Shown piece after piece: positions 3,185 to 37,147 of a stretch of 64,000 nucleotides of DNA (position 1 is the stretch's first letter; every line of letters begins with the position of its first letter). The DNA lies in NCBI GenBank assembly GCA_016187335.1, contig JACPJW010000001.1:704001-768000 (forward strand), in the 5' to 3' direction. A program made the translations under genes and the position numbers. The DNA is from Candidatus Aenigmatarchaeota archaeon. GTDB taxonomy: Archaea; Aenigmatarchaeota; Aenigmatarchaeia; GW2011-AR5. Below the pieces are notes generated by a model. That model made no database searches and was not told where the DNA came from. It saw only the letters and a program-made list of their open reading frames with translations.

Positions 3185-3233
3185 CTTAATATTTTTCTTT
3201 CCGCAGGCGCTTTCTTTTCCAAAAAGAAAGGGC
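3185..3233 (-). repeat. Family-B hairpin repeat, intergenic copy directly after the rpoA2 stop
   Basis: GCCCTTTCTTTTTGGAAAAGAAAGCGCCTGCGGAAAGAAAAATATTAAG closely matches the tRNA-Tyr 59/60 and tRNA-Thr D-loop introns. Confidence 0.85.
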
Positions 3234-5711
3234 CTATTTTTTCTTCTTCATCTTTGACAAATCCATCGTGAGCTCGACCATGCCCGTGCCGATGGGTGCC
3301 AGCTGCCCTACCAGCACGTTCTCGATTATCCCGTCCATGGTGTCCTTCTCGCCGTAGAACGACGCGTTTATCAGGTGCCTTTTTGTTTCCTCAAAGTTCG
3401 CCCGCGCCAGGACGGACGCCTTTTTGCCGGATACGCCGTATCGCCCGATGTCCCTGACCTCCCCGGTGAATGTCATGATGTCAGCAAGAAGCATCAGATG
3501 CCTTACATCAACCTCAAGGCCCTGCTCGTCTAAGGTTTCCTTGGCTTCCTGCAAAATAACATTTCTCGTGGCTTCTATGCCGAGTATCTCGAAAATCTGG
3601 TGCACGTCGTTCGTCCTTGTCCTTTTTGCGTCAACTTCGTTTATCTGCAGGACCTTTTTCAGGTTAGTCCCTGCGGTCTGTATGACCCAGTCGTCGCCCT
3701 CGCGCACCACGACGACATTCTCTATCCCCTTGATGCCGTCAATGTGCATCTTCAGGACCTTGTTTTTTATTTTTCTGAGGTTCTTGACGTCGCTTTCCTT
3801 CGGCTTTATGTAGACATTCCCGCCCCTGAAGGAAATGGCCGCCTCTTTGACGTATTTGGAGACCATTGATTTGAGCTGCTCTTTGTGCTTTTCGCCCTCA
3901 AGCTCCAGCTCAATCTGCATGTCAATAAGGTCTATGGAATCGGAAAGTATCACATCTTGCACTTTTACGGATTTCATCCTGTTCGCAATTTCCTTTGCCT
4001 TTTCCTTGCTGTTGTATTCTTCTTTCAGGTAAATGATCATGTTCTTCTCAAAAGTCTTGCGGGCGTCAAAAATCTCTATGAGCCTCGGCAGGCCCTGCGT
4101 GACCTTGCTCAGCCTGTCTGACTGCGAAGCCAGCGTATAGGAACGCATTGTGTTGTGTGTAATAATGCCTTCAAATGTCGTGAATGTTTCCGTGCCTTCA
4201 ACCGTCAGATCGTAGACATATCCAGAAGAAGGCAAAACTTCTGTTATTTCAGTTATCTCATCCCAAACGACATCAGATGCATGCATCTTTCTGAGTATCG
4301 AAAGCTCTTCAGTCACATCAATGTGATTTTTCTTTGCAATCTCGTTGAATAATACAATATATCTAAGTAGGGCTTCTTTTCCAATTTTCTGCCTTTTTGT
4401 GAAGCTGTTTACATACCTGCTTGGATAACTCAGTTTCTTCGCAAGCTTTGGAAGCAGATCGTCGAAGCCGCCTACAAGCTCGACAAAATCTTGCTTGATG
4501 GGTTTGCTAGCACACAGTACTCCAAGATTCTCGGCCTTTTTGGCGGAACTAAACCCGATTTTTTGCCGGAATACAGATGCGTATTTTGCGGGTATTGTTA
4601 GTGTATATTGCTTGCCTCTTCCTTTGTAAGAGAATATGCCAAATCTCGCTAAGAGTAGTGAGATGCCGTCTATAAGCTCTTTTGAATTTGAAGAAGCCCT
4701 TATTACGCCTCTCTCGACAGATACATTCCCATCGCCGTCGAAATAAGCCTGCAAAAGCGCCGATACGAATTTCTCATCAGCACTGTACGCAAAATCAGGG
4801 ACTCTCTTGTTCCTTGATCCACTACCGCATGTTTTTGCAAGTAGGGCGGAAAGAATAGCGGAATTTACATGAATATCATGGCCGTTTGCAAATCCTCTTG
4901 TGTTGTCATATTCATTATAGGTCAGGCCGAATGAAGAGGCAAATTGTCTTATTCTCCCGAGGAAAATTTCATTTGTGCTTGATATGCATACAAAATTCGG
5001 AGTGCAGTTTCCTTCGGAGAGATAAGCGCCGAAAATATATCCCGTAACCTCATTCAGCGGAAAGATTTCCGGCAAAGGCTTTTTGGCACGTGAAAAATGG
5101 GTTTCTGCAATCGATTTTAGGTTAATAGAATCTATGCAGTTTTCAGGAAGCAGCTTGATTACCGGTATTCTCTCGCCTTTTCTCAGGTCTTTTCCGGAAA
5201 CAGCAACTATCTTGTTATGCTTTCTTATAACAAATGAATGAGAATCTGTGGCTATTATCTCGCGCCCTGACAGTGTTCTTATTCTCAGCAGCCTTTCCGG
5301 TGATTTGTGTCTGCTGCATGCAAGAACCTTTTTCCATTCGATTTTCTCCCCCTGATTTATGCTGGGAACGTATATTTCCATGCCCGAAAGATCGCATATA
5401 TCCCAGCCATTCTCGTTCATAGAACCCAGATTTTCTATTGATTCATCGGTAAAGCGGCTAATTTCAGAAATGGCAACCCGGTCTTTATGCTTGATAATTA
5501 TTTTTTCCTTGGCGTCAATGCTCATCTGCGTCGCCGGTTCGCTGATTGATTGCGCTGCAACGACGCCTATTGCCTCGCCGGGTTCGTAAAGGTATTTCAC
5601 GATAAGATGATTTAATTTTTCCAGCAGTTCTTCTTTTTTCTTCCCTTCAATCCCGTGCTTCCTGCAGTATTCCTCGAATTTCAGCAACACTTCCTTTGAA
5701 AGATAAGCCAT
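3234..5711 (-). CDS. rpoA2: DNA-directed RNA polymerase subunit A'' (Rpo1C), intein-containing precursor
   Basis: EPGEAIGVVAAQSISEPATQM, GLPRLIEI, DVRHLMLLAD and SVLARANFEE. Confidence 0.97.
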   Translation of the reverse strand: MAYLSKEVLLKFEEYCRKHGIEGKKKEELLEKLNHLIVKYLYEPGEAIGVVAAQSISEPATQMSIDAKEKIIIKHKDRVAISEISRFTDESIENLGSMNENGWDICDLSGMEIYVPSINQGEKIEWKKVLACSRHKSPERLLRIRTLSGREIIATDSHSFVIRKHNKIVAVSGKDLRKGERIPVIKLLPENCIDSINLKSIAETHFSRAKKPLPEIFPLNEVTGYIFGAYLSEGNCTPNFVCISSTNEIFLGRIRQFASSFGLTYNEYDNTRGFANGHDIHVNSAILSALLAKTCGSGSRNKRVPDFAYSADEKFVSALLQAYFDGDGNVSVERGVIRASSNSKELIDGISLLLARFGIFSYKGRGKQYTLTIPAKYASVFRQKIGFSSAKKAENLGVLCASKPIKQDFVELVGGFDDLLPKLAKKLSYPSRYVNSFTKRQKIGKEALLRYIVLFNEIAKKNHIDVTEELSILRKMHASDVVWDEITEITEVLPSSGYVYDLTVEGTETFTTFEGIITHNTMRSYTLASQSDRLSKVTQGLPRLIEIFDARKTFEKNMIIYLKEEYNSKEKAKEIANRMKSVKVQDVILSDSIDLIDMQIELELEGEKHKEQLKSMVSKYVKEAAISFRGGNVYIKPKESDVKNLRKIKNKVLKMHIDGIKGIENVVVVREGDDWVIQTAGTNLKKVLQINEVDAKRTRTNDVHQIFEILGIEATRNVILQEAKETLDEQGLEVDVRHLMLLADIMTFTGEVRDIGRYGVSGKKASVLARANFEETKRHLINASFYGEKDTMDGIIENVLVGQLAPIGTGMVELTMDLSKMKKKK
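4152..5522 (-). mobile_element. Intein (457 aa) with a LAGLIDADG homing endonuclease, in RpoA''
   Basis: Inserted between TQM and TMR; starts with Ser (SIDAKEK), ends GIITHN before Thr+1; block B ATDSHSF; motifs GYIFGAYLSEG and ALLQAYFDGDG; visibly more AT-rich than the exteins. Confidence 0.95.
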
Positions 5712-5756
5712 TTTTAATCACCATCATCAGGGCTGAACTTTATTTTTAACATTGTT

Positions 5757-8237
5757 TTATTTCACGCCGTGGAAAAGCTTTTCAATGTCAACCTTGCCCG
5801 CGTCGCTTTTGGCGGGGTCAACCATGTCCTCGCCCGCGACAAACTGTATGATAAAGTTCTTGCTGTCGCGCACGGTGCCGTCGTATTCCACTCTCAGGTC
5901 CTGCAGCGCGTTGACCAGGCGGCGCTCCATGTACCCGGAGTGCCTTGTGTGCAGCGACTTGTCCATCAGGTTCTCCCTGCTGTTCATGGCGTCAAAGAAA
6001 AACTCCACGGGGTCAAGACCTTTCTTATAGCCGCTCGAAACGAAGCCGTGGGATTTCGCGCCAAGGTCGCCTCTTTCAAACAGCGACAATGTCCTTCCCA
6101 CGAAGCCCCTGTGTATCCTCTCGCCTTCCAGGGCCTCCTGCCCGACAAACGCGCACATCTGCGTAAGGTTGACAAAGGAGCCTCTCGCGCCTGTTATAGC
6201 CATTATGACCGCTGTCGTCAGAGGCAGGTCTTTCTTGACGGTTTCTGACGCGCTGTTTGACGCGAGGCCGCCTAATTGCAGTATTTTGTTTTCCAGGGTC
6301 ATCTCCGGCGTCAGTCCCCCTGTCTTTTCAAGGCGGCCTGCTTTGTAGTCCCTGACCAGCCTCGAAATGCTTTCGTTGTACTCATCAATTACTTTTTCAA
6401 TATTGTTTTTCGCGCGCGTTGAAATGTCTATGTCGCCGACGGATATGCTGAATCCTTTCCTTGTGATGACTTCCAGGGCGAGCTTGGAAACCCTGTCGAT
6501 GAATTCCCTCGCTGCGGAGTGGCCGTATATCCTTTCTATTATGTCGATGAGCTTTGCTTTTTTCTCTCCCAGCGCGTCGTCATCAATGACGCCCCTGAGA
6601 AGCCGCCCGTTCTTTATCACGACAGCTTCACCTGTGGACGACTTGAATTCAATGCTCAGGTCTTTCGGCAATAAGTAAGAAAAAATCTCCTTTCCCGTGT
6701 AGGTATCCTTGACCTCAGGGAGCTCCATCCCTATAGACATCAGCAGCTCCGCGGCTTCTTTTCGGCTGAGCTTTGTCTCGTCCCTTGTAAGCAGATAAGA
6801 GCCGGTTATGTGGTCGTGCTTGCACGCAACTATGGGCAGCCCGTATCGCGGCGAGCGGATGTGGTTTTCCACGGCCATCAGCATCTCCGCTTCCGTCTGC
6901 GCTTCCTCTGTCTGCGGAACGTGCAGGTTCATTTCGTCGCCGTCAAAGTCCGCGTTGTATGGTATCGTCACCGCGAGGTTCAGCCTGAAAGTCCTGTAAG
7001 GCATGATGCGCGCGCGGTGGCCCATCATGCTCATGCGATGCAGCGACGGCTGCCTGTTCATGACCGTTATGTCGTTGTCCTGCAGATGGCGCTCCACGAC
7101 GTAGCCGGTATCAATCTCTTCCGCTACGTCTTTTTTGTTTTCCTCTGTTATTTTTTTTCTTATCCCGTCCGGCCTCACGACATAATTCGCGCCCGGATGC
7201 ACGCCCGGCCCGTTAAGTATGTATTTCTTGACGGCATCAAGGCTGTTTTTCGTCACCTTCACGGGAACGGTAAGCTCTTTCGCGATTTCCATGGGTATTC
7301 CCACTTCGCTTATTGAAATATTGGGGTCCGGCGTGACAACGGTTCTCGCGGAAAAATTAACACGCTTTCCGGAAAGGTTTCCGCGGAACCTCCCCTCTTT
7401 TTTGCTCAGCCTCTGCATCAGCGTTTTCAGCGCCCTGCCTGACCTGTGGCGCGCCGGCGGCAGCGTTGAAATCTCGTTGCTCATGAACGTTGAGATGTGG
7501 TATTGCAGTAATTCCCAGATGTCGGCGATGATAAAATCAGGCGCGCCGATTTCCAGATTTTTCTTCAGTCTTTCGTTTATCCTTACGACGTCAACCAGCT
7601 TGTGCGTCAAGTCATCTTCCGAGCGTTCGCCTGTTTCCAGGGTGATTGAAGGGCGCACGGTCACGGGAGGCACGGGCAGTATGGTAAGGACAAACCATTC
7701 AGGCCTTCCGCCTTTCACCCTGAGCAGCTGTAAATCTTCATCAGTGATTTTTTCCAGCCGCTGCCTTATTTCCTCGGGATTCATCTCTGTGCTGCCTTCG
7801 TTGAATGTGGTCGGCTTCTGGAACGTCAGCTCCCTTTGCTTTTCGCCGCAGTGTATGCACATCTTCGGCTTCTTCTTGTACAGTTCGTTGAGCGGGTTGC
7901 CCATCTTCTTCAGGTCTTCCAGCTTCGCCAGCGGACGCGAGCATTTCCTGCATATCGAGCGCAGCACCATAAAAATCTTTTTTCCGTACAGCGGGTGTAT
8001 TGCCGGCTTCGTCAACTCAAGGTAGCCGAAATGCCCCAGGCATTGCCCTATGGAGCCGCCGCACGTCCTGCACCGCAGGCCGGGGTCGACAACGCCGAGG
8101 TGCAGGTCAGTCAGCCCGCCGTCTATCGGGTAGCCGTCAGGATCGTAAAGCTCCGCGTGCTCAATCTTCACCGCCGACATTTCCTTAATCATGCGCGGCG
8201 ACAGGAATCCGAACTCGATTGCTTTTACTTTTGCCAT
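5757..8237 (-). CDS. rpoA1: DNA-directed RNA polymerase subunit A' (Rpo1N)
   Basis: Catalytic NADFDGDEMN, NRQPSLH, GKRVNFSAR, clamp Zn motifs. Confidence 0.98.
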   Translation of the reverse strand: MAKVKAIEFGFLSPRMIKEMSAVKIEHAELYDPDGYPIDGGLTDLHLGVVDPGLRCRTCGGSIGQCLGHFGYLELTKPAIHPLYGKKIFMVLRSICRKCSRPLAKLEDLKKMGNPLNELYKKKPKMCIHCGEKQRELTFQKPTTFNEGSTEMNPEEIRQRLEKITDEDLQLLRVKGGRPEWFVLTILPVPPVTVRPSITLETGERSEDDLTHKLVDVVRINERLKKNLEIGAPDFIIADIWELLQYHISTFMSNEISTLPPARHRSGRALKTLMQRLSKKEGRFRGNLSGKRVNFSARTVVTPDPNISISEVGIPMEIAKELTVPVKVTKNSLDAVKKYILNGPGVHPGANYVVRPDGIRKKITEENKKDVAEEIDTGYVVERHLQDNDITVMNRQPSLHRMSMMGHRARIMPYRTFRLNLAVTIPYNADFDGDEMNLHVPQTEEAQTEAEMLMAVENHIRSPRYGLPIVACKHDHITGSYLLTRDETKLSRKEAAELLMSIGMELPEVKDTYTGKEIFSYLLPKDLSIEFKSSTGEAVVIKNGRLLRGVIDDDALGEKKAKLIDIIERIYGHSAAREFIDRVSKLALEVITRKGFSISVGDIDISTRAKNNIEKVIDEYNESISRLVRDYKAGRLEKTGGLTPEMTLENKILQLGGLASNSASETVKKDLPLTTAVIMAITGARGSFVNLTQMCAFVGQEALEGERIHRGFVGRTLSLFERGDLGAKSHGFVSSGYKKGLDPVEFFFDAMNSRENLMDKSLHTRHSGYMERRLVNALQDLRVEYDGTVRDSKNFIIQFVAGEDMVDPAKSDAGKVDIEKLFHGVK

Positions 8238-8238
8238 G

Positions 8239-8562
8239 TCAATCCCTCATCTTAATGCCGGTTTCTTTTCCAAGAAATCTTCTCTCTTCTGCTGTCAGAT
8301 CCATTCTTGTCATTCCTGTTCTTTCCACCAGTCTTTCTATTTCTGCTTCGGCGTATTCCAAAAGAGGCCCGGTAGCAATTACAGCAAGCTGTTCTTTGTC
8401 TCTTTGAATCAGGGACACGCTGTACCTTTCTGCAATCAGCTGCGCAAAATATCTTCCCGCGTCAGGGTGTTCCACCAGTCTGATACCTGCTATTCCCTGG
8501 GCAAATCTCCTGACTCCTTCCGGAATTTCTTCATTCCAATGATAAATGTCAGCATTGAACAT
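8239..8562 (-). CDS. Hypothetical protein between rpoB and rpoA1
   Basis: 107-aa co-oriented ORF with 1-2 nt gaps on both sides. Confidence 0.7.
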   Translation of the reverse strand: MFNADIYHWNEEIPEGVRRFAQGIAGIRLVEHPDAGRYFAQLIAERYSVSLIQRDKEQLAVIATGPLLEYAEAEIERLVERTGMTRMDLTAEERRFLGKETGIKMRD

Positions 8563-8564
8563 GC

Positions 8565-12137: not shown

Positions 12138-12283
12138 AAAATCACCTAAGAGGAGAAGAAACCTACGGTTTCCCTGCGGAGAACTTGAAAAGTTCTCCGA
12201 GGTCTCGAAAAGCTTTCGCTTTTCGCAGATCTCCCTCTACCCTCATTTCCCTTATTATTTTTAAGACCTCTGAGAAGGTCTTC

Positions 12284-12316: not shown

Positions 12317-12658
12317 TGGGCCCGACGGGAAATTCGAAGCACGTTGCCACGACATGCTTATTCGAACCCGCGACAGGCGGCTATCTTTCAAGGAGAAGAA
12401 ACGGAACAGCTTGAAGCACTTCGTGCTTCGGTTTCCTTCCTCTCCTTTGAACCTCATTTCCTCATATTACCGAACGAATTCGGCTTCGGATCTTTTATCT
12501 TTTTGATCAAACTTTTTTCCAAAAAGTTTGCATGATAAAAGGCCGCTACTCTACCAGGTTTCTCGCAACCCCAGTCTTCCTGTAATATCTTCGCATGTTC
12601 TTTGGGACATGCAAAGACCTTTCTTACAAGAAAGGGATTTGCACTGAGCTACAGGCCC
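12317..12658 (-). tRNA. tRNA-Lys(UUU) with three introns: 15/16 (12559-12643), 37/38 (12383-12535), 59/60 (12331-12360)
   Basis: Removing the three segments leaves a 74-nt cloverleaf: acceptor GGGCCUG/CGGGCCC, anticodon arm GCGGC-CUUUUAA-GCCGC, UUCGAAU T-loop; BHB-like geometry at each junction. Confidence 0.9.
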
Positions 12659-12659: not shown

Positions 12660-12879
12660 CGCCTTGGCCGGGATATTCGGAACTTTCCCTTTTCCTCGAA
12701 GAACGTTAGTTCTTCGGGATCTTGGAGAACTTTCGTTCTCCACAGATGATTGAACTTTTTGGAAAAGTTCATTCGAACCCGGGTCGTAGCCGTTCTATGA
12801 TTTTTCCGTTGACGCTTTTGCTCGCCAGCGGAAAAGGGTCATGACAGGGCTACATGCTAGACCGCTACACCACCAAGGC
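12660..12879 (-). tRNA. tRNA-Asp(GUC) with two introns: 37/38 (12793-12841), 59/60 (12674-12771)
   Basis: 73-nt mature cloverleaf, acceptor GCCUUGG/CCAAGGC, G73; strict BHB at 59/60 (UUCG/CGAA central helix). Confidence 0.92.
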
Positions 12880-13382: not shown

Positions 13383-13528
13383 ACATTACTATTCAAGGAT
13401 AAAGGATTTAAAGACTTTAAAAACCGTCAGGACGAAACAGGATTTTTCTGGGTAAAAGCCGAAACCCGCCTTCCGTTTTTCTTCAATTTTAAATATGTCC
13501 TTCGGCGTATTCTCTATTGCAATTTAAT

Positions 13529-13719
13529 CCCGCGATAGCTCAACGGTAGAGCGCCCGGCTGTAGCTTAGCACTGCAGAACAAAGCTGTGTTATGATTCAG
13601 CAGCCGCTCACTAGAAACCGGGAGGTTGCCGGTTCGAAAGACCCTTTTCTTTTGGAAAGAAAAGCGTCTACGGAAAAGAAAATATTAAGGAAAGGGGTCC
13701 GAAACTCCGGCTCGCGGGA
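13529..13719 (+). tRNA. tRNA-Tyr(GUA) with two introns: 37/38 (13565-13616), 59/60 (13639-13705)
   Basis: C1-G72 acceptor CCCGCGA/UCGCGGG, A73, anticodon arm CCCGG-CUGUAGA-CCGGG; strict BHB at 59/60. Confidence 0.92.
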
Positions 13720-13722
13720 TTT

Positions 13723-19196: not shown

Positions 19197-19226
19197 TGCA
19201 ACTTTTTAGAAAAAAGTTGCATCAAA
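19197..19226 (+). repeat. Family-A hairpin repeat, intergenic
   Basis: TGCAACTTTTTAGAAAAAGTTGCATCAAAA. Confidence 0.8.
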
Positions 19227-19337
19227 AAATCAGACTTTTCAGAAAACAGCTTCCTGTTGCTGAAAAGTTCCTGAATTTATTTGTTTTTGGGGGTTTATAA
19301 AGAAAAATAAGAATCTTTCTCAAGATTATTACCTTAC

Positions 19338-19540
19338 GCCACGCTAGCTCAGTAAGCCCTTTTCTTGGAAAGAAAAGCGCTTGCGGAAAAAGAACATATT
19401 AGGAAAAGGGCTGGAGAATGGTAGAGCGTTAGTGAAATGACACCGCTAAACCTTGGTAAGGAACTTTTCAAAAAAGTTCCATCAAAACGGAAAAACCAAC
19501 AAAGAGGTAAAGGCCCCGAGTTCGATCCTCGGGCGTGGCT
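19338..19540 (+). tRNA. tRNA-Thr(GGU) with three introns: 16/17 (19354-19418), 28/29 (19431-19449), 37/38 (19459-19504)
   Basis: 73-nt mature cloverleaf, acceptor GCCACGC/GCGUGGC, U73, anticodon arm UUACC-UUGGUAA-GGUAA; AGCG/CGCU central helix at 28/29. Confidence 0.88.
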
Positions 19541-19543: not shown

Positions 19544-19680
19544 TATACAAGGAGAATACCACTGTTTTCAAACAGTGGTATTATAATGGTATTCTCCTGT
19601 ATAACATAATCCACAAATAACATATGTGGTATTTCTCCGAAATACCACCGACTTTAGTCGGTGGATTATGTTTATAAAAC
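19544..19680. repeat. ~136-bp multi-hairpin repeat (family C), copy 1, abutting the 3' end of tRNA-Thr(GGU)
   Basis: Aligns by eye over its full length with 41271-41406; internal inverted repeats GGAGAATACCA/TGGTATTCTCC and GGTATTTC/GAAATACC. Confidence 0.85.
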
Positions 19681-28797: not shown

Positions 28798-28811
28798 GAA
28801 ATAACCTTAAG

Positions 28812-28930: not shown

Positions 28931-29232
28931 TTACCTGCGAGTGGTTAAGACCTTCGAGTGCCTGGAACTAGCCCAGCGATTCGGAGCGTTCCGGAAATTT
29001 CCCTCGATGTCAAGGAGAGCTTCTCACCGAACAGGTACTCTTCGTCCCCTGACGAGCCAGTGTGCGCGGTGCAGGCCTGATGCTCGGGGTTTTGAGAGAA
29101 CTGTCTGACCACAAGCGGTCTGCCAGGGCTGGAAAGAACCGCTTACCATTCGAGATAACTTGTTATCAAGCGCTGTGCGGCGTCCTGCGACCCCAGCGCG
29201 CGCCATGCCCGAACTCGGAGCGTTTGTTCGTT

Positions 29233-29829
29233 TTATACTAGTGGCATCTTGCAATGTGTTTTCTCTGTTTCCAGGATTAAATGCATAACAGCCTCTTTTT
29301 GTTGGGCTGCGTCCACTACTATGGGGAGAATGCAAAGGGACTCGAAGACCCGAGTTAGCTGAGCGCGCACTTGCGCGTAAAACGCAATGGCGGCTTTCCA
29401 ATCGGATGGTTTGCTGAAAATGGATGTTCTTCTAAGCGCGATATCAGGTACAATCTCCAGGAGGTACACAAGCGGCGCAAATTCAAGAACGTGGTCATAG
29501 ATCTGTTTTTGATACTTGGCGGCTACCTCGATGTTGCGCACTCCGGCGTAGGCGAGATTTCCGACGTGCCACGTTTCCACGAAGAATGGGCGTTGCTGCA
29601 TGCGAAGCAGTATTTTGTCCCGTGCTAGCTCTCTCGACAAGACGACCTCGTCGAAGTGCGGGCCAAATGCCCAAGGCGGCTCGCACACACCAGAGCTGCG
29701 CTCGACATCCCCAGCGACTTCGGGGAAGAAAGCAAACCCCTTCCGTTCGAGGCAAAGGCCGGCAGTGGTCTTGCCGGAACCGTGGATGCCGACAAGCACG
29801 TGTGCCTTACTCGCCGCGACCACATGCAT
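29233..29829 (-). CDS. P-loop nucleoside/nucleotide monophosphate kinase (thymidylate/deoxynucleoside kinase-like)
   Basis: Walker A GIHGSGKTT, FPEVAG, FFVETWHVGNLAY, VYLLEIVPDIALRR. Confidence 0.75.
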   Translation of the reverse strand: MHVVAASKAHVLVGIHGSGKTTAGLCLERKGFAFFPEVAGDVERSSGVCEPPWAFGPHFDEVVLSRELARDKILLRMQQRPFFVETWHVGNLAYAGVRNIEVAAKYQKQIYDHVLEFAPLVYLLEIVPDIALRRTSIFSKPSDWKAAIAFYAQVRAQLTRVFESLCILPIVVDAAQQKEAVMHLILETEKTHCKMPLV

Positions 29830-29919
29830 TCCTGCTCGTTACGGGTTCACTTCTTCGCTTTGATGCCTGGTTCATGTGGCACGTCGCGGATTCATCAGTG
29901 AGCCCCCAGAGCCCATAGA

Positions 29920-30519
29920 TCATTTCGCGTGGTGCGCTGTTGACATGTCGCCGACGGCAGAGTAGACTCGGCCGGCCTTCACCAGATCTCGGTACGGAAT
30001 GTTGATCTGAGGGCACTCGTGGATTCCCAGGAGGTGTGCGATTTCGTCATTCTTGCGCGTGCCATCAGTCGGTGAATACGCGAAGGTTTCTATCTCCACG
30101 AACCAACCCAGAGGCTCGACCATATCGAGAGCTACGATGCTGTCTAGGTCAGCCCTGAAAACCAAACGATGCTTCTTGACCGCAACGTATTCGACGAAGT
30201 CTAACTGCCTGAGCATCAGGCGGATCTTATCGCTCTGACCGGTTATGTCCACGTTAATTTCCTGTTTCCAATACTGGCCACGCTCGCGCATTGCTCTTGA
30301 GGTGGGGGGCTTCCACGTGACTTGCTCAAACGTAGGCGTAATGCGAACCCTGAGACATTCCTCCGTCTTGATGAAGTCGTTGTGCTTTGATGTATAGTAT
30401 ATGTCTTCCTGGTCCTCCCGCTCAGTTTGTTTCCATCCCAATTCAGCGAGTTTTGCCATTAACGAACTGGCATCTGCTCCAACGTACAACTTCATCTCAA
30501 TTTCTTTTCTGTTTGCCAT
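29920..30519 (-). CDS. CYTH-domain protein (class IV adenylate cyclase / triphosphate tunnel metalloenzyme)
   Basis: N-terminal EIEMK, QEDIYY, LRVR, KHR, LGWFVEIE, C-terminal PYRDL. Confidence 0.9.
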   Translation of the reverse strand: MANRKEIEMKLYVGADASSLMAKLAELGWKQTEREDQEDIYYTSKHNDFIKTEECLRVRITPTFEQVTWKPPTSRAMRERGQYWKQEINVDITGQSDKIRLMLRQLDFVEYVAVKKHRLVFRADLDSIVALDMVEPLGWFVEIETFAYSPTDGTRKNDEIAHLLGIHECPQINIPYRDLVKAGRVYSAVGDMSTAHHAK

Positions 30520-30532
30520 TGATTACCATCTC

Positions 30533-31861
30533 CTAAGACTGTGGTTGGTTGGGATTCGGGGGCTCTTGATAGGCTGCGTTGCGGAATACCGCAAACTGGT
30601 ATATCCCGCGGATTGTGTTCATTTCAAACAGGTTCGCTTTCTCCGTGGTGCCAGTTAGTGCAGCGAACTCATTCCGGCTTAGGAAGTGCCGACCGGCGTC
30701 GCGTAGGAACTTCAGGTAGTAGCGGTGCCGCACTCTCCCCCACGTGCTTTCGAACTGTGGGTCCATAATTTCGATAATGCACGATATCTTGCCGACTCGG
30801 ATCACTTCATTAATCAGGGTCTTGACGGCGCGCACGTTCTCCATGTGATGTAGTACATTCTTGCAGAGCACAAAGTCGAAGTGGTTGTCACCAAATGGGA
30901 GGCGTCGCGCGTCATGATTAGTAAACAGGATGAATGAGCTGATATTGCGGAACGTAGGGCTACTAAATCGTTCGCTCATGAGCTTGATCTGGCTCCACGA
31001 CACATCGTTTCCGACCACTAGCCGCACACCGGGTAGCTGTGTAAACCTGAGAACGGCGGTATTCTCGCCGCACGCTACGTCAAGTATCGTGTCATGCTTG
31101 CACGCCTGCGTGATTTCGAGGATCTTGGCTTCTAGATCCTGGATCGAGTGCTGGAAGTGGAACCGCCCCAACGATCTGAAGAGGGGCTTCACCACCGCAT
31201 CGTGGAATGCGTAGCGGGATCCGTATTTTATGTTCTCTTCAACCTCGAACTCCGGGACCGAGTCGAGGTCCAGGCTACGGACGTAACTGCGAGCTAGTTC
31301 TACTACGGTTTTGTTGTGCAGCAGACCAACTGGAACCGAGGTATCCTCGCACGGGACCAGATGCCCTCTCGAATGGACGGCGGCCTTGAGGTCCTGCTGT
31401 GGATCCATGTTTCTGATTCGGCCCACAAATGCTATGCCGCGGTGGAAGTGTTCCCGTCCCTCGTAGCGGAAGCGATTCTCGAGGAAGGCGATGGGTTCTA
31501 CCTCGCCCAGTTGCAGGTTTCTGATAGTCTTGGACGCATGGCGGTTGGCGGCATCGATGAAGGTTTCCGTCAAGTCTCTTCGAAGACTGCCGCCGACCAG
31601 GACCCACGCGAGTTGGTTGCTCGCAAAGGATCGTTCTAATAGGAATTCTTTGTGTTTAGTATATGGTAGCATGAGCACGAAATAGCGGCGCGCCAGACAG
31701 TACTCGAACGAATACCTGTCCTGCAGGGTGACCTCATGTTGGATGCGCGGAGCTGACGCATACAGCTCGGTGTAGACCGAGTACAGATCGTCGAGATACG
31801 CATCGGTGTCTTGAAACGCCCGATACGCTATGCGTTCACGGCCCGACGACACTTCTGGCAT
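30533..31861 (-). CDS. Degenerate Nudix-like domain fused to a class I SAM-dependent methyltransferase
   Basis: FLLERSF..WVLVGGSLRRDLTETFIDAANR (Nudix-like); ILDVACGENT, GNDVS, DARRLPFGDNHFDFVLCKNVLHH; start re-chosen at MPEVSS (the ORF is open to 32164). Confidence 0.8.
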   Translation of the reverse strand: MPEVSSGRERIAYRAFQDTDAYLDDLYSVYTELYASAPRIQHEVTLQDRYSFEYCLARRYFVLMLPYTKHKEFLLERSFASNQLAWVLVGGSLRRDLTETFIDAANRHASKTIRNLQLGEVEPIAFLENRFRYEGREHFHRGIAFVGRIRNMDPQQDLKAAVHSRGHLVPCEDTSVPVGLLHNKTVVELARSYVRSLDLDSVPEFEVEENIKYGSRYAFHDAVVKPLFRSLGRFHFQHSIQDLEAKILEITQACKHDTILDVACGENTAVLRFTQLPGVRLVVGNDVSWSQIKLMSERFSSPTFRNISSFILFTNHDARRLPFGDNHFDFVLCKNVLHHMENVRAVKTLINEVIRVGKISCIIEIMDPQFESTWGRVRHRYYLKFLRDAGRHFLSRNEFAALTGTTEKANLFEMNTIRGIYQFAVFRNAAYQEPPNPNQPQS

Positions 31862-32238
31862 CTTCCAGGCCCTTGCTCCCTCGGAAGCCCGTTTGTCCCC
31901 CGCCGCGTCTATAATACCATAGGCTAGCGTTGCCGCAAGTTTGGGCCTTTGAGCCTTAGGCTCAGGTATGGGCCCTTGGCTTGGATTCGCCGAGCCTACA
32001 TTGCCCGCGCCAAGGCCGTCATTGGCGTCTGCTGAGGCCCGCCAGCCTTGCCGCCGCATAAGGGCGACATCTGTGTGAATCAAAGCTAGCGCGAAGCTGG
32101 AATCCGTGGGACGGGATGGTGCTGCGTGATGCGGAGAGATGAGCTGCATGCACATTATTTGCACTGAAAGCTTTTGAGTGTTTCCCGTGGCGGGTGATTG
32201 TAAGCTTTTGTCCTGAGCGGCTGTGACTGTTCTGATAA

Positions 32239-32278
32239 GAGGGTTCCGGAAATTTCCTTACATGTGATGGACGAGCAG
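32239..32278. repeat. 40-bp direct repeat, right copy
   Basis: GAGGGTTCCGGAAATTTCCTTACATGTGATGGACGAGCAG. Confidence 0.9.
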
Positions 32279-32389
32279 CCACTCAGCAGTGACGATAAAC
32301 AGGATCTCCACGAACCGCATGCAATGCCGCAGTAGTAAGTAAGTAATTACTCAAAATCATCGGTGCCCCGAGCACCTTTCAGCTAAACT

Positions 32390-32659
32390 TCAACGTGCAG
32401 TCATCCGGCTGGTTTCTGATTCTTTGTTCCCTCCGTTCACGAGGTCATCAATACCTATGAGGAGAAAGCAGATTCCCAAGACAGCGCTGAACGCCACCTC
32501 TAGCCACCACTGAAAGGGGATAGGTAGGCCTCTGAAAGACTGATCGATTATGAATTCGCCGGTTTCCGCGGCATACCTGAATAGAACAAACGAGAATCCT
32601 ATGTGGGCAAGCGCCGAGACCAACCAGCGGTTGGCACGGAGCCATCCAGCGGAGAACAT
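32390..32659 (-). CDS. Small two-TM membrane protein inside the element
   Basis: Two hydrophobic segments; 89 aa. Confidence 0.55.
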   Translation of the reverse strand: MFSAGWLRANRWLVSALAHIGFSFVLFRYAAETGEFIIDQSFRGLPIPFQWWLEVAFSAVLGICFLLIGIDDLVNGGNKESETSRMTAR

Positions 32660-32701
32660 AGTGGTACTATTTCTAGCGCAACCTTCTTAAAGCGTTAACG
32701 T

Positions 32702-33457
32702 TCAGCACCCGCTCCGGCCCAGTGGCAAGTAAATGCTTATGGTCGAAATTTGTACGCCTACTGTGACGCGAGCAGCAAAGCGTCTACACGCCTGAAACTG
32801 CCTCGTGACGGATCGAGGGCTTCCCCCCGGTCGCTCTGGCGGCCCAACGGCGCTGGTAGCCTCCGCCACACCAGAAGCCTCGACTATATAAGACCCCGGC
32901 GTCACCCCATAGACCACGAAGTTGGTCGGGAAGTGTGAGAGTGTCTCGGTGTGAATGAGATTCCCATGCTGCCCGAAAATGTGGACGCCGATTGGCTTCA
33001 GGATGCTTCTATCCGCCCCCGTTACGGTAACCCGTAGCTGATATGCAATGTCGACGGTGGGCCTCTGCGGAGGACCCTGTACTACCACCCAGTTCCCAAA
33101 ATATACGGCCATCGTTGTACTTTTGCCTTCAGGGTCCCGGCTGTAGTTCACGGTACCTCTGTAGCCAACTCTGATTCTAAGGGCTACCGCAGCTGGAGCT
33201 TCAACAGAAAAATTCGCCGGACGGCTGTCACCTGGGGGGACGATGCCAAGATCCTCGAAATCACGCGGGACAGGTGTCGGAGATGAAGACGAGCAATGTG
33301 TTCTATTTGCTGGAGATGGATCTGGCTCCTGAACAAGAACGGGCGTTGGTAGGCCTCGGGTTTGGCTGGTTCCTGGAACTGCGCGAGCGATGGCGACGTG
33401 CCAAAGAGCCGGCAACTGAATGGCAGGGTCGTGCACAGGGGCGCTAAGCCGCAGCAA
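32702..33457 (-). CDS. Hypothetical beta-rich protein, possibly an Ig-like fragment; start uncertain
   Basis: VVYGVTPGSYIVEASG resembles carboxypeptidase-regulatory-like beta sandwiches; the N-terminal third looks non-coding. Confidence 0.35.
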   Translation of the reverse strand: MLRLSAPVHDPAIQLPALWHVAIARAVPGTSQTRGLPTPVLVQEPDPSPANRTHCSSSSPTPVPRDFEDLGIVPPGDSRPANFSVEAPAAVALRIRVGYRGTVNYSRDPEGKSTTMAVYFGNWVVVQGPPQRPTVDIAYQLRVTVTGADRSILKPIGVHIFGQHGNLIHTETLSHFPTNFVVYGVTPGSYIVEASGVAEATSAVGPPERPGGSPRSVTRQFQACRRFAARVTVGVQISTISIYLPLGRSGC

Positions 33458-33502
33458 AGAACCTGCGTGTTGGGAATCAAACTTCGGAGCAGTCCTTTAC
33501 TT

Positions 33503-34774
33503 CTATCGTCTCTTTGCCAGCTTCCGGAGTTCTTCCCGCCGCCTCACCCTGAGCAGTTCCTCGTTCGACATCGCCGCCATCTTCATGAGCGTAGGAAGGG
33601 CTCCTTGGATTTCCTTGACTTGCTTCAGCGTAGATGCCATGTCAGAGAACTCCAGGGAGAAGTTGCAGTTCTCACAGATCCTCGCCTCGGGACTGTTGAA
33701 CGCCTTGCAGTTCCAGCATAACAGAGGCTTTTCCAGCTCCTTCCTTATCTCATCCTCCGGCCGGAGCAGCCCATGTCGTTTGAGGATGGCCTCCTCGACG
33801 TCACGGTTGCTCATGTGCAGGTAGACCTCGAAGTGCTTACTGGTCGGAGTATGCCCCGTGATCCTCTTTACGATCTGATCCGGGTACTGCTGCACCAGGT
33901 GAGTCGTCCTGGAGTGACGCAGGATGTAAGGGTAAACCTTCTTCATAACGCCCGCGCGGCGTGCTATACCCTTCAGCATGCGGTTGAGTGCAGCCACGCC
34001 GATAATCTCGTCGTGCCGTGGATTCGCCTTCTGACGCAGCCATAGCAGCGCGTCAGGGTTCGCTCTGAGTGGGTGGATGTTTATCCATGCCCGGAGGTAC
34101 GTCGCAGCGTTGATTATGCGGATGGGCCGCGGCCTCGTCTTGCTGTGCTGGATGTGGACAACAGCACCGTACGGGTCAAAGGTCACATTCCCGATTCTCA
34201 ACGTCAGCAGCTCAGAAGGACGCGCAGCTGTCTCGTAAGCCACACTGATGAGAGCTTTGTCTCTCGTGTTCGTCGCCGTGGCGATCAGGCGTTCAACCTC
34301 ATCTACATCAAGGGTCTGACCTTCTTCCACCCTCGACTTTTTCGCATTGCTGGGAACCGACGTGCGGAGCCACTCGAAATCCCTTGGATTATACTTGCTT
34401 CCCTTGAGCCACTTGACGAAGACTTTCAGCCCAGCCCTCATGTCCGCCCTGTACCATTCGGAACAGAGAGCTGGCTTCTCATCGGCACGGCTGGCTGCGC
34501 CATGCGGTGGCTCCCTTTTCGTGAGGTCGTTCAGCCGGCCTACAAGGCGCCGAAAGTCCCGAACGCTGTACTTGTCGACGTCCTTCCCGAGCAAAGGGCC
34601 AATCCGAAGAAAGAGAAAGGCGTACTTCCTCATTCTGGCCGCCGAAACGCGCGCCGACATGTCATCGAGGAAATCCAGAATGAGCCGGCGGTTTCTTCGG
34701 GGCAGGTCGGACTCCTGAATCTCGCGCCTCCTCTTCTCGAATTCCTCCTTGTGCTTGTAGATCTGGACCTCCAT
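33503..34774 (-). CDS. Tyrosine recombinase/integrase with a C-terminal Zn ribbon
   Basis: TAARPSELL (R), SKT (K), YILRHSR, ITGH, EVYLH (Y), CWNC...CENC; start MEVQIY with a GAGG Shine-Dalgarno. Confidence 0.92.
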   Translation of the reverse strand: MEVQIYKHKEEFEKRRREIQESDLPRRNRRLILDFLDDMSARVSAARMRKYAFLFLRIGPLLGKDVDKYSVRDFRRLVGRLNDLTKREPPHGAASRADEKPALCSEWYRADMRAGLKVFVKWLKGSKYNPRDFEWLRTSVPSNAKKSRVEEGQTLDVDEVERLIATATNTRDKALISVAYETAARPSELLTLRIGNVTFDPYGAVVHIQHSKTRPRPIRIINAATYLRAWINIHPLRANPDALLWLRQKANPRHDEIIGVAALNRMLKGIARRAGVMKKVYPYILRHSRTTHLVQQYPDQIVKRITGHTPTSKHFEVYLHMSNRDVEEAILKRHGLLRPEDEIRKELEKPLLCWNCKAFNSPEARICENCNFSLEFSDMASTLKQVKEIQGALPTLMKMAAMSNEELLRVRRREELRKLAKRR

Positions 34775-34830
34775 ATTCCCTCTTATTGCCCGCCCAATAT
34801 TTAAGGGTTCGGCATCGAACAGTTTTCCAA

Positions 34831-34991
34831 TGCCGAAGGCGAGAATCGAACTCGCGACCCCCACATTTCTCTTCAACGCGCATGCCGCTCAGAACTCATA
34901 ATTTTCAATTTCTTTGGTCTTTCTTTGGTCAAACTTTCTTTTCAAGAAAGTTTGTTATGAGTGTGGTGCTCTACCACTGAGCCACTTCGGC
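34831..34991 (-). tRNA. tRNA-Met(CAU), elongator-type (or Ile2), with a 37/38 intron (34867-34955)
   Basis: G1-C72 acceptor GCCGAAG/CUUCGGC, anticodon arm CCACA-CUCAUAA-UGUGG; the intron contains a family-A hairpin. Confidence 0.9.
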
Positions 34992-35041
34992 TTTCCGTTT
35001 TGATCAAACTTTTTTGAAAAGTTTGACTGAGCCACTTCGGC
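34992..35041 (-). repeat. Exact duplicate of the first 16 nt of tRNA-Met (35026-35041) followed by a family-A hairpin (34992-35025)
   Basis: ACTGAGCCACTTCGGC occurs at 34976-34991 and 35026-35041. Confidence 0.9.
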
Positions 35042-35100
35042 ACAAAGAGCAGAACCTGACGGTTCTCTCTCTTGACTCTCATTCCCTTATTATTTCTTGG

Positions 35101-35122
35101 TGCAACTTTTTGGAAAAGTTGC
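35101..35122. repeat. Family-A hairpin repeat, intergenic
   Basis: TGCAACTTTTTGGAAAAGTTGC. Confidence 0.75.
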
Positions 35123-35174
35123 CTCTATCCTCTTTTCCTTATTATGATTTTTAAACGCTTTTATTGAAGTATAA

Positions 35175-35723
35175 ATGATGGACCCGCTTAAATTCCGCGA
35201 ACTGCTGAGGCGCATTGAGTGGAAAAACCTTGCGCTGCTTGCCGTTGCGGTGGCACTCCTGGCGGCGTACTTCAAGCTTTTCATTATAACTGCCCTGATA
35301 GCTTCCGTGATTGCCGCCAGCCTTCTTGTCCAGAAGTTCCAGCTGCGGCTCTTCGGCTTTGAAACGGTAACCTTTTCCACTGTCATCATGGGGGTTGCCT
35401 ACGGCCCCGTGATAGGCGGAATATTCGGCATGGCCATGGTCCTTGTATCCCTGGTCATATCCGGATATTTCGGGATATACTATCTGTGGATCATACCCGA
35501 ATATGCCGTGGCCGCTTACCTTGCGTCGCAGTGGTACGGCGGCGACATACTTTCAGTGGGGCTGAACATAACGATTATCCTGCAGGTTGCAAACATCGTG
35601 CTCACCTATTTCTTTGACCGCTACAGCTTTTTCCAGCACATCGTTTACAGCGCGACGAACATTGTTTTCAATTTTGCCGCATTTGCTTTGTTCGGCCCTG
35701 TGCTCGTGGGCATCCTGAAATGA
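35175..35723 (+). CDS. Multi-TM membrane protein, ECF S-component-like, paralog 1
   Basis: FETVTFSTVIMGVAYGPVIGGIFG; about six TM helices. Confidence 0.7.
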   Translation: MMDPLKFRELLRRIEWKNLALLAVAVALLAAYFKLFIITALIASVIAASLLVQKFQLRLFGFETVTFSTVIMGVAYGPVIGGIFGMAMVLVSLVISGYFGIYYLWIIPEYAVAAYLASQWYGGDILSVGLNITIILQVANIVLTYFFDRYSFFQHIVYSATNIVFNFAAFALFGPVLVGILK

Positions 35724-35751
35724 ATTAAAGCTGTATCGTTCAGTTATTTTC

Positions 35752-36282
35752 ATGGCCGAACTGCTTTCGCGGATAGAATGGAAGAACGTCGCGCTGCTTG
35801 CCGCGGCCCTGGCTTTGGTAGCTGTCTACGCCAAATTATTTGCGGTTGTCCTGCTCATCGCCGGTGTTGTTTTTGTGAGCTTCATTGTCCAGCAGTTCAG
35901 CCTGCGCACGGTAGGCCTTGAGCTCGTGACTTTTGCGACGGTTGTTTCCGGCATTGTCTACGGCCCTGTCGTGGGCGCGGCGCTGGGAGCGGTTCTGGTC
36001 CTGATACATCTTGTTTTCTCGGGTTATTTTGGTGTATATTATTTCTGGGTCATACCTGTTTACGCCTTTGGCGGCTTTCTGGCGTCAGCATGGTCAGGCC
36101 AGGGCGTGGTTTCTTTGGGCATCAACATAACCCTGGTCATCCACGCGATAAACATGGCTTTTACGTTTGCTCTCAACAGGAACAACATGTTCAACTACGG
36201 GCTTTACGCCGTGACAAATGTAGTCTTCAATTTCATTTTGTTCGTTGTTTTCGGCCAGGCTGTCGTGGGCATCCTGAAATGA
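35752..36282 (+). CDS. Multi-TM membrane protein, ECF S-component-like, paralog 2
   Basis: LELVTFATVVSGIVYGPVVGAALG; aligns with paralogs 1 and 3. Confidence 0.7.
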   Translation: MAELLSRIEWKNVALLAAALALVAVYAKLFAVVLLIAGVVFVSFIVQQFSLRTVGLELVTFATVVSGIVYGPVVGAALGAVLVLIHLVFSGYFGVYYFWVIPVYAFGGFLASAWSGQGVVSLGINITLVIHAINMAFTFALNRNNMFNYGLYAVTNVVFNFILFVVFGQAVVGILK

Positions 36283-36345
36283 AGCCGTAGTCTGCATTCA
36301 TGGAAGCTTTTCGTAATTTTTAACCCTTGCGTCCAATTATTTCTG

Positions 36346-36888
36346 ATGGTTGAAAGAATATCGTCCCTGCTGTCGCGCATTGATTGGAAGAACGTCGCGC
36401 TGCTGGCTGCCGCCGTCGCGCTGGCGGCTGCCTACTTCAAGCTCTTTGCCATAGTGTTCTTCATCGCAGCCGTGGTCGCGGTCAGCTTCCTGGTGAACCA
36501 GTTCCACATCCGCATTATTGGCATTGAACTGGTAACTTTTGCCACGGTTATTTCAGGCATCGTTTACGGCCCCGTGGTAGGAGCAGTAATGGGCGCGGTG
36601 CTGGTTTTCATAAGCCTTGTATTCTCCGGGTTTTTCGGGGTTTATTATTTCTGGCTGATTCCGGAATACGCTGCCGCCGGCTACCTGGCGTGGCTCTGGC
36701 GTGACCAGCCTATAGCCGCTCTTGGCATGAACATCCTGCTCATGGTCCAGGGGCTCAATATCGTCCTGACGTACCTGTTCGCAAGGCAGAACTTCTTCAA
36801 GTACGTTGTTTACATAGCCACGGAACTGGTATTTAATTTTATAATATTCTCCGTCTTCGGGGCGTGGGCTCTTGGTGTCCTGGCGTGA
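36346..36888 (+). CDS. Multi-TM membrane protein, ECF S-component-like, paralog 3
   Basis: IELVTFATVISGIVYGPVVGAVMG. Confidence 0.7.
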   Translation: MVERISSLLSRIDWKNVALLAAAVALAAAYFKLFAIVFFIAAVVAVSFLVNQFHIRIIGIELVTFATVISGIVYGPVVGAVMGAVLVFISLVFSGFFGVYYFWLIPEYAAAGYLAWLWRDQPIAALGMNILLMVQGLNIVLTYLFARQNFFKYVVYIATELVFNFIIFSVFGAWALGVLA

Positions 36889-36892
36889 GAAA

Positions 36893-37084
36893 TCAGGCCG
36901 TCACGAGTTCTACGTCCTTCACATCCACGGGCGGCACGACGTAAACGCGGGAGAAATCGTATTCAACGGCGTCGCCCTCGTAAGTTATCTCGCATATGTC
37001 TATGATTATTATCTTGAACTTTATGTCCAGGATTTCTCTTTCAAGGACCTTTTTCTGCGCTTTCACGATTTTCATTTCAATCAT
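36893..37084 (-). CDS. Small hypothetical beta-rich protein
   Basis: 63-aa ORF with host-like codon usage. Confidence 0.45.
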   Translation of the reverse strand: MIEMKIVKAQKKVLEREILDIKFKIIIIDICEITYEGDAVEYDFSRVYVVPPVDVKDVELVTA

Positions 37085-37100
37085 CCGTAGCGTTTTCTTT

Positions 37101-37147
37101 GATAATATTCTTTTCCGCCAGCGCTTTTCTTCCCCAAAGAAAAGGGC
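37101..37147 (-). repeat. Family-B hairpin repeat, intergenic copy
   Basis: GCCCTTTTCTTTGGGGAAGAAAAGCGCTGGCGGAAAAGAATATTATC on the minus strand. Confidence 0.85.

Follow-up and report, generated by a model that had tools for sequence, protein, structure and literature searches.

A short structured cassette shared by stable-RNA introns and free copies in an Aenigmatarchaeota genome

A stretch of 64,000 nucleotides (nt) from Candidatus Aenigmatarchaeota archaeon (assembly GCA_016187335.1, contig JACPJW010000001.1, positions 704,001 to 768,000; hereafter the window) carries five copies of a short repeated element, family B, three as introns of tRNA genes and two outside any tRNA. The window corresponds to G000:C2:704001-768000, where G000 denotes the genome of this groundwater archaeon, 1.01 Mb in two contigs (C1 and C2), 47% G+C and 91% complete. 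All copies share the core AAAGCG-Y-NN-R-CGGAAA and a 5' hairpin whose 5' arm starts with CCCTTT. Direct support was obtained for the family itself, its copy number and spread, its basal helix with a conserved mismatch, its mini-hairpin, several pairs of occupied and empty sites, and a strict bulge-helix-bulge (BHB) geometry around one intron. We consider it probable that family B is a mobile structured cassette, which has been inserted, copied, and inherited in sequence that is removed after transcription or that otherwise tolerates inserts. One cassette connects introns of four kinds of stable RNA, free copies, an in-frame insert in proS, and gains that can be followed site by site, and so bears on how archaeal BHB introns arrive.

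A preliminary description of the window had reported the element in introns of tRNA-Asp, tRNA-Tyr, and tRNA-Thr and at two free sites, and all five copies were confirmed at its coordinates. The copies and their host tRNA genes are listed here, with E values from the covariance model R1.

3185-3233, minus strand: free copy in the rpoA2-rpl30e spacer (R1 E value, 4.7e-12)
12793-12841, minus strand: intron at position 37/38 of tRNA-Asp(GUC), core at 12803-12818 (2.4e-11)
12660-12879, minus strand: tRNA-Asp gene, host of the 37/38 cassette intron
13639-13705, plus strand: intron at position 59/60 of tRNA-Tyr(GUA), core at 13661-13676 (best R1 hit, 1.1e-13)
13528-13720, plus strand: tRNA-Tyr gene, host of the 59/60 cassette intron
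19354-19418, plus strand: D-loop intron of tRNA-Thr(GGU), core at 19374-19389 (8.5e-13)
19338-19540, plus strand: tRNA-Thr gene, host of the D-loop cassette intron
37101-37147, minus strand: free copy downstream of ftsZ, core at 37112-37127 (4.5e-12)

ARAGORN found no tRNA in the window, and Rfam found a single tRNA and a 5S rRNA; both thus miss the host tRNAs, which were therefore read manually. A BHB scan of the tRNA-Tyr region returned exactly 13639-13705 as its best candidate, a strict hBHBh' motif in which H is fully paired (4/4, TTCG/CGAA), the bulges are AA/A and AC/T, the inner helix has 13 bp, and the outer helix is the 5-bp T stem; RNAfold returns the same fold. This intron adds an ATATTA tail and the 3' arm GGAAAGGGGTC. 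The tRNA-Asp intron, with an H helix of CTGT/ATAG, no long 3' arm, and a fold z score of -4.7, was read manually as a relaxed motif (H 4/4, h' of only 2 bp). In the tRNA-Thr intron, which has the tail GAACATATTA and an 11-bp inner helix AGCCCTTTTC/GGAAAAGGGCT, a manual reading gave 3/4 pairs in H and 11 bp in h'. Removal of the introns restores a normal mature tRNA sequence in all three genes, again by manual reading. Each gene holds further introns: tRNA-Asp has one of ∼100 nt at 59/60 (T loop, ∼12672-12771) built of hairpins of a second family, family A; tRNA-Tyr has a canonical 37/38 intron (∼13567-13617) outside family B; and tRNA-Thr has more on the anticodon-arm side, one of which contains a family A hairpin followed by CGGAAAAACC. 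The open reading frame (ORF) adjoining tRNA-Tyr has homologues of at most 40% identity.

The free copy at 3185-3233 starts 1 nt after the rpoA2 stop codon (TAG, 3234-3236), and 13 nt separate its end from the first rpl30e ATG. Its core, AAAGCGCCTGCGGAAA, lies at 3198-3213, followed by an A-rich tail (3185-3197) ending in ATATTAAG; its minimum-energy fold is the hairpin, in which AGG (the AG of the stop codon plus G3233) is the basal partner of CCC at 3230-3232. The ATG of a 63-amino-acid (aa) ORF (36893-37084) follows the copy at 37101-37147 at a distance of 17 nt; no stop codon abuts this copy.

The count of five copies in the preliminary description holds for the window and falls far short of the genome, in which we found 46 exact cores and, with R1, ∼55 copies. 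A further 19 sites match the core with one mismatch; order-3 Markov shuffles of the genome (n = 3) gave 0 exact and 2 to 5 one-mismatch cores, and a control with the reversed pattern gave approximately none in sets of 41 and 201 genomes. R1, trained on 95 copies drawn from many genomes, returned 61 hits in G000 at E ≤ 0.1, ∼51 of them below 1e-3, and all five window copies are within its top 14. Joint membership in R1 and 82 to 100% identity over ∼50 nt bear out the earlier view that intron and free copies form one family. Chance similarity among A/T-run hairpins in an intron-rich genome is next to impossible as an explanation: the hairpin arms are of low complexity, and a first, loose pattern gave 5 matches where 2 were expected, but the comparison with shuffled sequence, R1 E values down to 1e-13, and covariation above that of all 500 shuffled alignments refute it. 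At the gathering threshold, Rfam has nothing over any window copy, and at E ≤ 0.01 or 0.001 it has no family B match in 78 kb holding more than 25 copies.

The 56 best R1 hits in G000 were assigned to hosts, through Rfam where possible and otherwise by reading their flanks, as follows.

tRNA introns, predicted, in the D loop, anticodon loop, or T loop: ∼23 copies
16S rRNA gene: 4 copies
23S rRNA gene: 1 copy
signal recognition particle (SRP) RNA gene: 1 copy
tRNA trailers, directly 3' of tRNA ends: 3 copies
post-stop sites, starting 3 to 7 nt 3' of the stop codon where a co-oriented ORF (75 codons or longer) ends: 14 copies
proS coding sequence: 1 copy, in frame
elsewhere: a few copies

The element is not confined to tRNA introns and intergenic sites of one genome; it also occurs in 16S, 23S, and SRP RNA genes, in proS, and in other phyla. 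ARAGORN in no-intron mode finds only 4 tRNA genes in G000, which indicates that nearly all tRNA genes are interrupted; 12 score above the Rfam cutoff. An automatic pipeline combining BHB detection with ARAGORN resolved 3 of 53 regions (tRNAs for Val, His, and Ser, each recognized by ARAGORN once the intron was removed), a low yield explained by the 2 to 4 introns, many of them relaxed, that most tRNA genes hold. Intron-free tRNA references numbered 18, too few for a reference-based census. Standard tRNA finders would report genomes of this kind as lacking most tRNAs.

The other host genes are enlarged as well. The 16S gene (G000:C2:239678-242953) measures 3,276 nt against a 1,478-nt model and has at least eight insertions, the 23S gene (G000:C2:208275-214038) at 5,764 nt is nearly double its 2,987-nt model, and the SRP RNA gene (G000:C2:74695-75085) measures 391 nt against 317 and has one intron of ∼74 nt. 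One 16S insertion holds a LAGLIDADG_3 ORF (L043 8116-8727, minus strand), and another a 190-aa ORF with no Pfam match.

Comparison of copies gives a cassette of 35 to 50 nt with the frame N3-CCCUUU-[variable stem-loop]-AAAGCG-N3'-R-CGGAAA, often followed by an A-rich tail. Among 191 distinct copies the 3 nt before CCC covary with the 3 nt after GCG (mutual information of 1.41, 0.96, and 0.45 bits), and these basal pairs use all four Watson-Crick types; positions -4 and +4 show no covariation. In alignment A1, 94.2% of the cells of the resulting ten-pair helix are paired, compared with 78.7% in shuffles, and the covariation score of 0.426 (0.138 when shuffled) was reached in 0 of 500 shuffles, with slid controls at 0.01 to 0.12. 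The helix contains a pyrimidine mismatch: the middle C of CCC always lies opposite the C of GCG, or forms C.U in diverged orthologues. Non-Watson-Crick cells are of the G-U type in 21 cases and of the A-C type in 9, which suggests that the sense strand is the folding strand.

A second pairing, mutually exclusive with the first, involves nt 1 and 4 after GCG, which read UA in 55, CG in 31, and UG in 9 of 95 copies; C-A was never seen, against ∼18 expected by chance. This covariation, together with a flipped G-C pair in an orthologue, indicates that the middle of the cassette can fold as a mini-hairpin, CG-YNNR-CG, of which GCUUGC is a frequent form. Intron copies have a further, distal 3' arm (..AAAGGG-N3'), perfectly complementary to the 5' arm, and the two together make up the BHB inner helix. 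Several other structures were considered and, from the sequence by itself, rejected: a purine-motif triple helix, since the apparent mirror symmetry of tail and arm follows from both being complementary to a symmetric U tract; a tRNA-like minihelix, since stems as short as 8 bp and others longer than 14 bp occur; K-turn, C/D, and H/ACA RNAs, whose box sequences are absent; and the twister, pistol, and hammerhead ribozymes, for which there were no Rfam hits.

Six site comparisons indicate gain of a copy: in proS, in the rpoA2-rpl30e spacer, at three sites of genome G193, and in the T loop of tRNA-Tyr. The proS copy (G000:C2:578087-578125, locus L208; R1 E value, 1.6e-9) is a 36-nt, in-frame insert of 12 codons that separates RCLPFD from SINKSGKC in prolyl-tRNA synthetase. 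It was found neither in 13 relatives in the order nor in the three closest homologues in a collection of 5.8 billion proteins (479 aa versus 491), which are 76 to 83% identical over the aligned C-terminal stretch. The DNA alignment places CCC precisely at its left border; the (T/C)GA that precedes it was there before the insertion and is complementary to the TCG inside the element. No BHB geometry fits excision of the 36 nt. At the end of rpoA2, the contig of the closest relative (L244) has the common sequence ...AAAAAATAGG and then an unrelated spacer, and the AGG that predates the insertion is again complementary to the CCT inside the element. Of 24 further relatives, G014 alone has a copy in this spacer. 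The G014 copy (L054, G014:C7 ∼37790-37830) is antisense and apparently lies inside an extended L30e frame, which stays open through it (99 aa versus 77 to 85 elsewhere).

G193 has copies at three sites where its congeners G017 and G157 have none, one of these sites being an abutting stop and start codon (TAA/ATG). At one G193 site the flanking triplet arrived with the element and at another the flank does not match, so the complementarity between flank and foot triplet seen at proS and rpoA2 is no general rule. In the T loop of tRNA-Tyr, G000 alone has a family B intron; 10 of 12 relatives have an intact T loop and 2 have unrelated introns there, while the canonical 37/38 intron is kept in all 13 genomes read. 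The closest match to this intron is an entire T-loop intron in a different tRNA (93% identity over 66 nt), and near-identical T-loop introns lie at C2 161606, 455594, and 464666 and in G015 (L013 and L037). The preliminary description proposed that the element lands in a tRNA and then picks up BHB-forming flanks; insertion is borne out, and since the match spans a whole T-loop intron, spread of entire introns between like sites fits at least as well as landing followed by acquisition of a BHB.

Two other introns are old. The tRNA-Asp 37/38 cassette intron is also present in G013, G005, and G007, degenerate in G014 and G026, and lacking in G035, G023, G009, and G025; its orthologues keep the core and differ in the hairpin interior. 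The tRNA-Thr D-loop intron is common to G014, G007, G010, and G022, with a diverged core, and lacking in G019 and G024; among its orthologues a basal C-G pair has become U-A with the mismatch kept, and a G-C pair of the mini-hairpin has become C-G. Turnover of the hairpin interior with a kept or compensated core indicates selection in place. A test of fixed orthologous positions thus divides the copies, with the tRNA-Tyr T-loop and proS sites variable and the tRNA-Asp and tRNA-Thr introns shared by several relatives; the claim of mobility is supported by the six gains and by differences in copy number between congeners and does not extend to these two introns. At the place of the second tRNA-Thr intron, which is of family A in G000, G019 has family B.

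The preliminary description likened the element to a miniature inverted-repeat transposable element (MITE) and suggested a search for a cognate HUH/TnpA(REP) transposase or reverse transcriptase, as well as for target-site duplications. The inverted repeat is internal (hairpin I), the outermost ends, RCCC and ATATTA, do not match as terminal inverted repeats, and the sole link between 5' arm and tail is 9 nt of complementarity between a U tract and an A tract. No target-site duplication is clear at the compared sites: some G193 and G000 sites could be read as having TAA...TAA or TA...TA flanks, but TA(A) is also the end of the tail; TTTC is repeated at the proS flanks; and the CGAA repeated at T-loop flanks is required by the BHB helix. 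Searches for the HUH/Y1 transposase (PF01797) and for reverse transcriptase (RVT_1) found neither in G000 (46 copies), G033 (29 copies), or G032 (13 copies); G000 also has no TnpB that we could find, and the cassette no ribozyme core. Y1_Tnp genes occur in 11 of 41 relatives, and presence of Y1_Tnp or reverse transcriptase bears no relation to copy number.

These results make it very improbable that family B is a REP/PATE-like DNA hairpin moved in trans by an HUH transposase (an IS200/IS605-type TnpA or a RAYT), with a guide triplet pairing to the target flank. Such an element would account for the imperfect hairpin with its conserved mismatch and 3' foot, for the pre-existing flank triplets at proS and rpoA2 that are complementary to the 3 nt after GCG (chance of the six pairs, ∼2e-4), and for the Y1_Tnp genes of some relatives. 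It is hard to reconcile with three copy-rich genomes that have no Y1_Tnp gene, with the two G193 sites that depart from the triplet rule, and with a strict sense orientation in RNA genes, which would not be expected of a DNA hairpin transposon.

G000 encodes a splicing endonuclease: an EndA gene at G000:C2:410532-410810 (minus strand) is its only tRNA_int_endo hit, a single catalytic-domain hit in a 205-aa frame. Many G000 introns have relaxed motifs, and relaxed BHB motifs normally require a broad-specificity (alpha-beta or epsilon) enzyme.

For a mobile cassette we envisage the following course. In intron copies the 5' arm would pair first with the imperfect proximal arm (..GCG..) and then move to the perfect distal arm (..GGG..), forming the BHB inner helix; the middle, once freed, would fold as the mini-hairpin. 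Both sets of covariation would follow if hairpin I gives way to the BHB and mini-hairpin in this manner. Selection would keep the core because the host RNA gene is lost unless the intron folds and is spliced. Copies could spread as DNA with no need of a G000-encoded enzyme, for instance when gene conversion acts on similar sites such as T loops, with an insertion route of another kind adding to the spread. Post-stop free copies would be by-products, some perhaps retained as compact two-way T-tract terminators or 3'-end hairpins.

T runs occur on both strands of the element, in the 5' arm and in the complement of the tail, and together with the post-stop position they would fit predicted two-way terminators or 3'-end hairpins. 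Alternatively, the nucleotides after a stop codon may be the only place in the genome that tolerates inserts; by a crude ORF call, ∼89% of G000 is covered by ORFs. A first cross-phylum set shows no preference for the post-stop position (1 of 116 copies, versus 2.3% of random positions), and it recurs in G193, so stop adjacency is a trait of certain subfamilies or genomes only.

The free copies might instead be primarily terminator-promoters, in which the hairpin and T tract end the upstream gene, CGGAAA and ATATTA serve as B recognition element and TATA box of the next, leaderless gene, and the introns are secondary. Start codons do follow the tail at ∼13 to 28 nt in the case of rpl30e and the 63-aa ORF, CGGAAA-(0-6)-ATATTA tails also occur in G028, the element at locus L090 sits just upstream of the TATA box of a tRNA gene, and the T runs on both strands would suit termination. 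We nevertheless judge this reading improbable. The general TATA box of G000 is TTTAAATA at ∼-30, as seen 32 nt upstream of the tRNA-Tyr +1 position; in eight stop-adjacent copies the gene beyond the tail, no more than 35 nt away, is convergent and leaves nothing to promote; two copies (C2 78228 and C2 847623) have a separate TATA box farther downstream; and most copies, including nearly all in relatives, lie inside RNA genes and have no tail. On the first three grounds a general promoter role of the ATATTA tail was rejected.

The exact core was detected in 28 genomes out of 41 from the order of G000. Across the phylum, a set of 201 genomes of 80% completeness or more contains 82 with the core, and per-genome counts span 0 to 46. 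In G015, G033, and G028, almost all copies lie within tRNA genes. Distribution among families is patchy, at 21/23, 12/17, 7/8, and 6/6 genomes in some and 2/42 (f18), 0/12 (f14), 0/12 (f21), and 0/9 in others, and congeners differ: 0, 1, and 26 copies in genus g17 (G017, G157, and G193), 5 and 46 in g56, and 0 to 32 in g43. A wider scan for CCCTTT-N4-30-core, in one genome for each of 185,579 species, gave at least 120 stretches, of which 80 were listed. Among the matches listed, nearly all are archaeal and Aenigmatarchaeota are the most frequent; Micrarchaeota, Nanoarchaeota/Woesearchaeota, Altiarchaeota, Iainarchaeota, Undinarchaeota, and Nanohaloarchaea are also represented, and there are single hits in ANME-1, Methanocellales, Methanosarcinales, Bathyarchaeia, Hadesarchaea, and a Thermococcaceae genome bin. 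Two of the Aenigmatarchaeota records are identical to G015 loci, placing the family to which the window belongs within that phylum. About 10 of the listed matches are bacterial and look like chance. The contexts include tRNA introns, tRNA trailers, and a site just upstream of a tRNA promoter, and one match is a 16S intron at the same site as a 16S intron of G000 (just after GGATTAGATA). In a Candidatus Altarchaeum metagenome-assembled genome (L089 4889-5070), three head-to-tail units of 71 nt each contain the cassette; the whole unit repeats, and we therefore rejected a CRISPR in favor of a tandem array.

The distribution bears on whether the cassette is a host signal, that is, a binding or cleavage site for a conserved archaeal RNA-processing or 3'-end factor wherever RNA is trimmed, with new copies arising by duplication or gene conversion only. 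Much would agree with this: all placeable copies are sense to transcription, the core is kept in old orthologous introns and across phyla, the covariation is of RNA type (G-U tolerated, C-A absent), and 14 copies lie 3 to 7 nt past the stop codon of a co-oriented ORF. Yet whole families and well-assembled congeners have no or almost no copies (f18, f14, and f21; G017 with 0 against G193 with 26), which would be odd for an essential signal, and the in-frame copy within proS, the antisense copy in the G014 spacer, the existence of tandem and nested copies, and the lack of a candidate factor also speak against it. On balance we regard a host signal as unlikely.

Several points weigh against a mobile cassette as well. 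Searches for Y1_Tnp and RVT_1 revealed no mobility enzyme, other transposase families not having been searched, and the insertion sites share no consistent target-site duplication or 5' boundary rule. The age of the tRNA-Asp and tRNA-Thr introns means that "mobile" applies to the family as a whole but not to each copy. Assignment of ∼23 copies to tRNA introns rests on D-arm and T-arm flanks read by eye. Most copies outside G000 were gathered with the exact core, and its apparent invariance there is partly by construction. Finally, the hits in non-DPANN genome bins could be mis-binned contigs.

Near-identical BHB introns across tRNA genes and positions of one genome have been described in Thermoproteales (Sugahara 2008; Fujishima 2010, as cited in PMC3239211 and bioRxiv 10.64898/2026.10.13.758758), and that preprint again places intron families in Thermoproteales and gives no general arrival route in Asgard archaea. 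G000 is similar in that introns of at least 80% identity occur in two or more tRNA types, the tRNA-Tyr pair being the example. It differs, as far as these sources describe the Thermoproteales introns, in that the cassette is also found in 16S, 23S, and SRP introns, in tRNA trailers, after stop codons, and in a protein gene, and in having a defined conserved core, a helix supported by covariation, and recurrence across phyla, mainly of the DPANN. The micrarchaeon ARMAN-2, for which PMC3239211 reports 56% disrupted tRNA genes, is likewise a member of the DPANN with a genome of ∼1 Mb and many noncanonical tRNA introns, including at 59/60 and several per gene; that paper appears to report no shared intron core or free copies, and its three-unit epsilon2 EndA contrasts with the one catalytic-domain hit in G000.

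REP, Correia, and ERIC repeats and MITEs resemble family B in being short, noncoding, hairpin-forming, and present in many copies, in post-stop and convergent intergenic positions, and in their patchy occurrence among close relatives; a role as terminator or mRNA end, as for REP, Correia, and ERIC repeats, is also conceivable from position and sequence. Unlike them, family B has no terminal inverted repeats at its ends, no clear target-site duplication, and no cognate Y1 transposase, is sense oriented, and consists mostly of predicted spliceable introns of stable RNAs. Complementarity of upstream nucleotides to the internal foot triplet at two empty-site pairs recalls the guide-target pairing of IS200/IS605 elements and the pairing of exon- and intron-binding sites (EBS-IBS) in group II introns, but the rule fails elsewhere and G000 has neither the enzymes of those systems (TnpA, TnpB, and reverse transcriptase) nor a ribozyme core in the cassette. 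Targeted literature searches returned no description of the core, of free copies, or of its presence in rRNA or SRP introns. What was known is tRNA intron "transposition" in Thermoproteales; what appears to be new is a shared cassette core, free copies, and hosts among rRNA and SRP RNA genes.

More tentatively, the cassette may be the vehicle of archaeal BHB-intron gain: pan-archaeal, without its own enzyme or mobilized in trans, folding in two states, excised by the host endonuclease, and with a core (pyrimidine mismatch, CG-YNNR-CG mini-hairpin, and GGAAA) that would serve as recognition site for insertion or copying, possibly guided by pairing of the foot triplet with the target. The core can be searched for in any archaeal genome, and intron gain can be tested in congeners with 0 and 26 copies.

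Family B occurs in several unusual arrangements in G000. At G000:C2:236762-236843, ∼3 kb 3' of the 16S gene, two head-to-head copies on opposite strands form a long palindrome in a stretch with no called RNA or ORF. At G000:C1:26120-26164 (minus strand), the core of a D-loop intron is followed by four tandem repeats of ∼19 nt (GAATGCACGGAAAGAAAAA). A longer composite occurs at G000:C2 210425, 525069, 903774, 76451, and 554874, one copy lying within the 23S gene; its module of ∼65 nt after CGGAAA contains the hairpins ..CAAAGAGC-AAA-GCTCTTTG.. and ..AGAAAGC..GCTTTCT.. and ends in GAACATATTA.

Family A has the form GAACTTTT-loop-AAAAGTTC followed by ATCAAAA. In the window it is found at 12672-12771 (minus strand), 19198-19232 (plus strand), and 19462-19490 (plus strand), and it occurs at many other sites in G000. 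It makes introns by itself and is also nested inside family B, between CCCTTT and AAAGCG (C1 25883 and C2 256633, 525069, and 903774). The rpoA2 gene next to the first free copy (3234-5711, minus strand) encodes 825 aa owing to an intein; in its homologue on the contig of the closest relative, a Pfam Intein_splicing hit lies between two RNA_pol_Rpb1_5 hits. Three other segments of the window, 12151-12263, 12580-12628, and 19629-19676, match several unrelated contigs of G001, a genome from the same genus that is 56% complete and contains next to nothing of the window, at 83 to 95% identity and belong to further repeat families.

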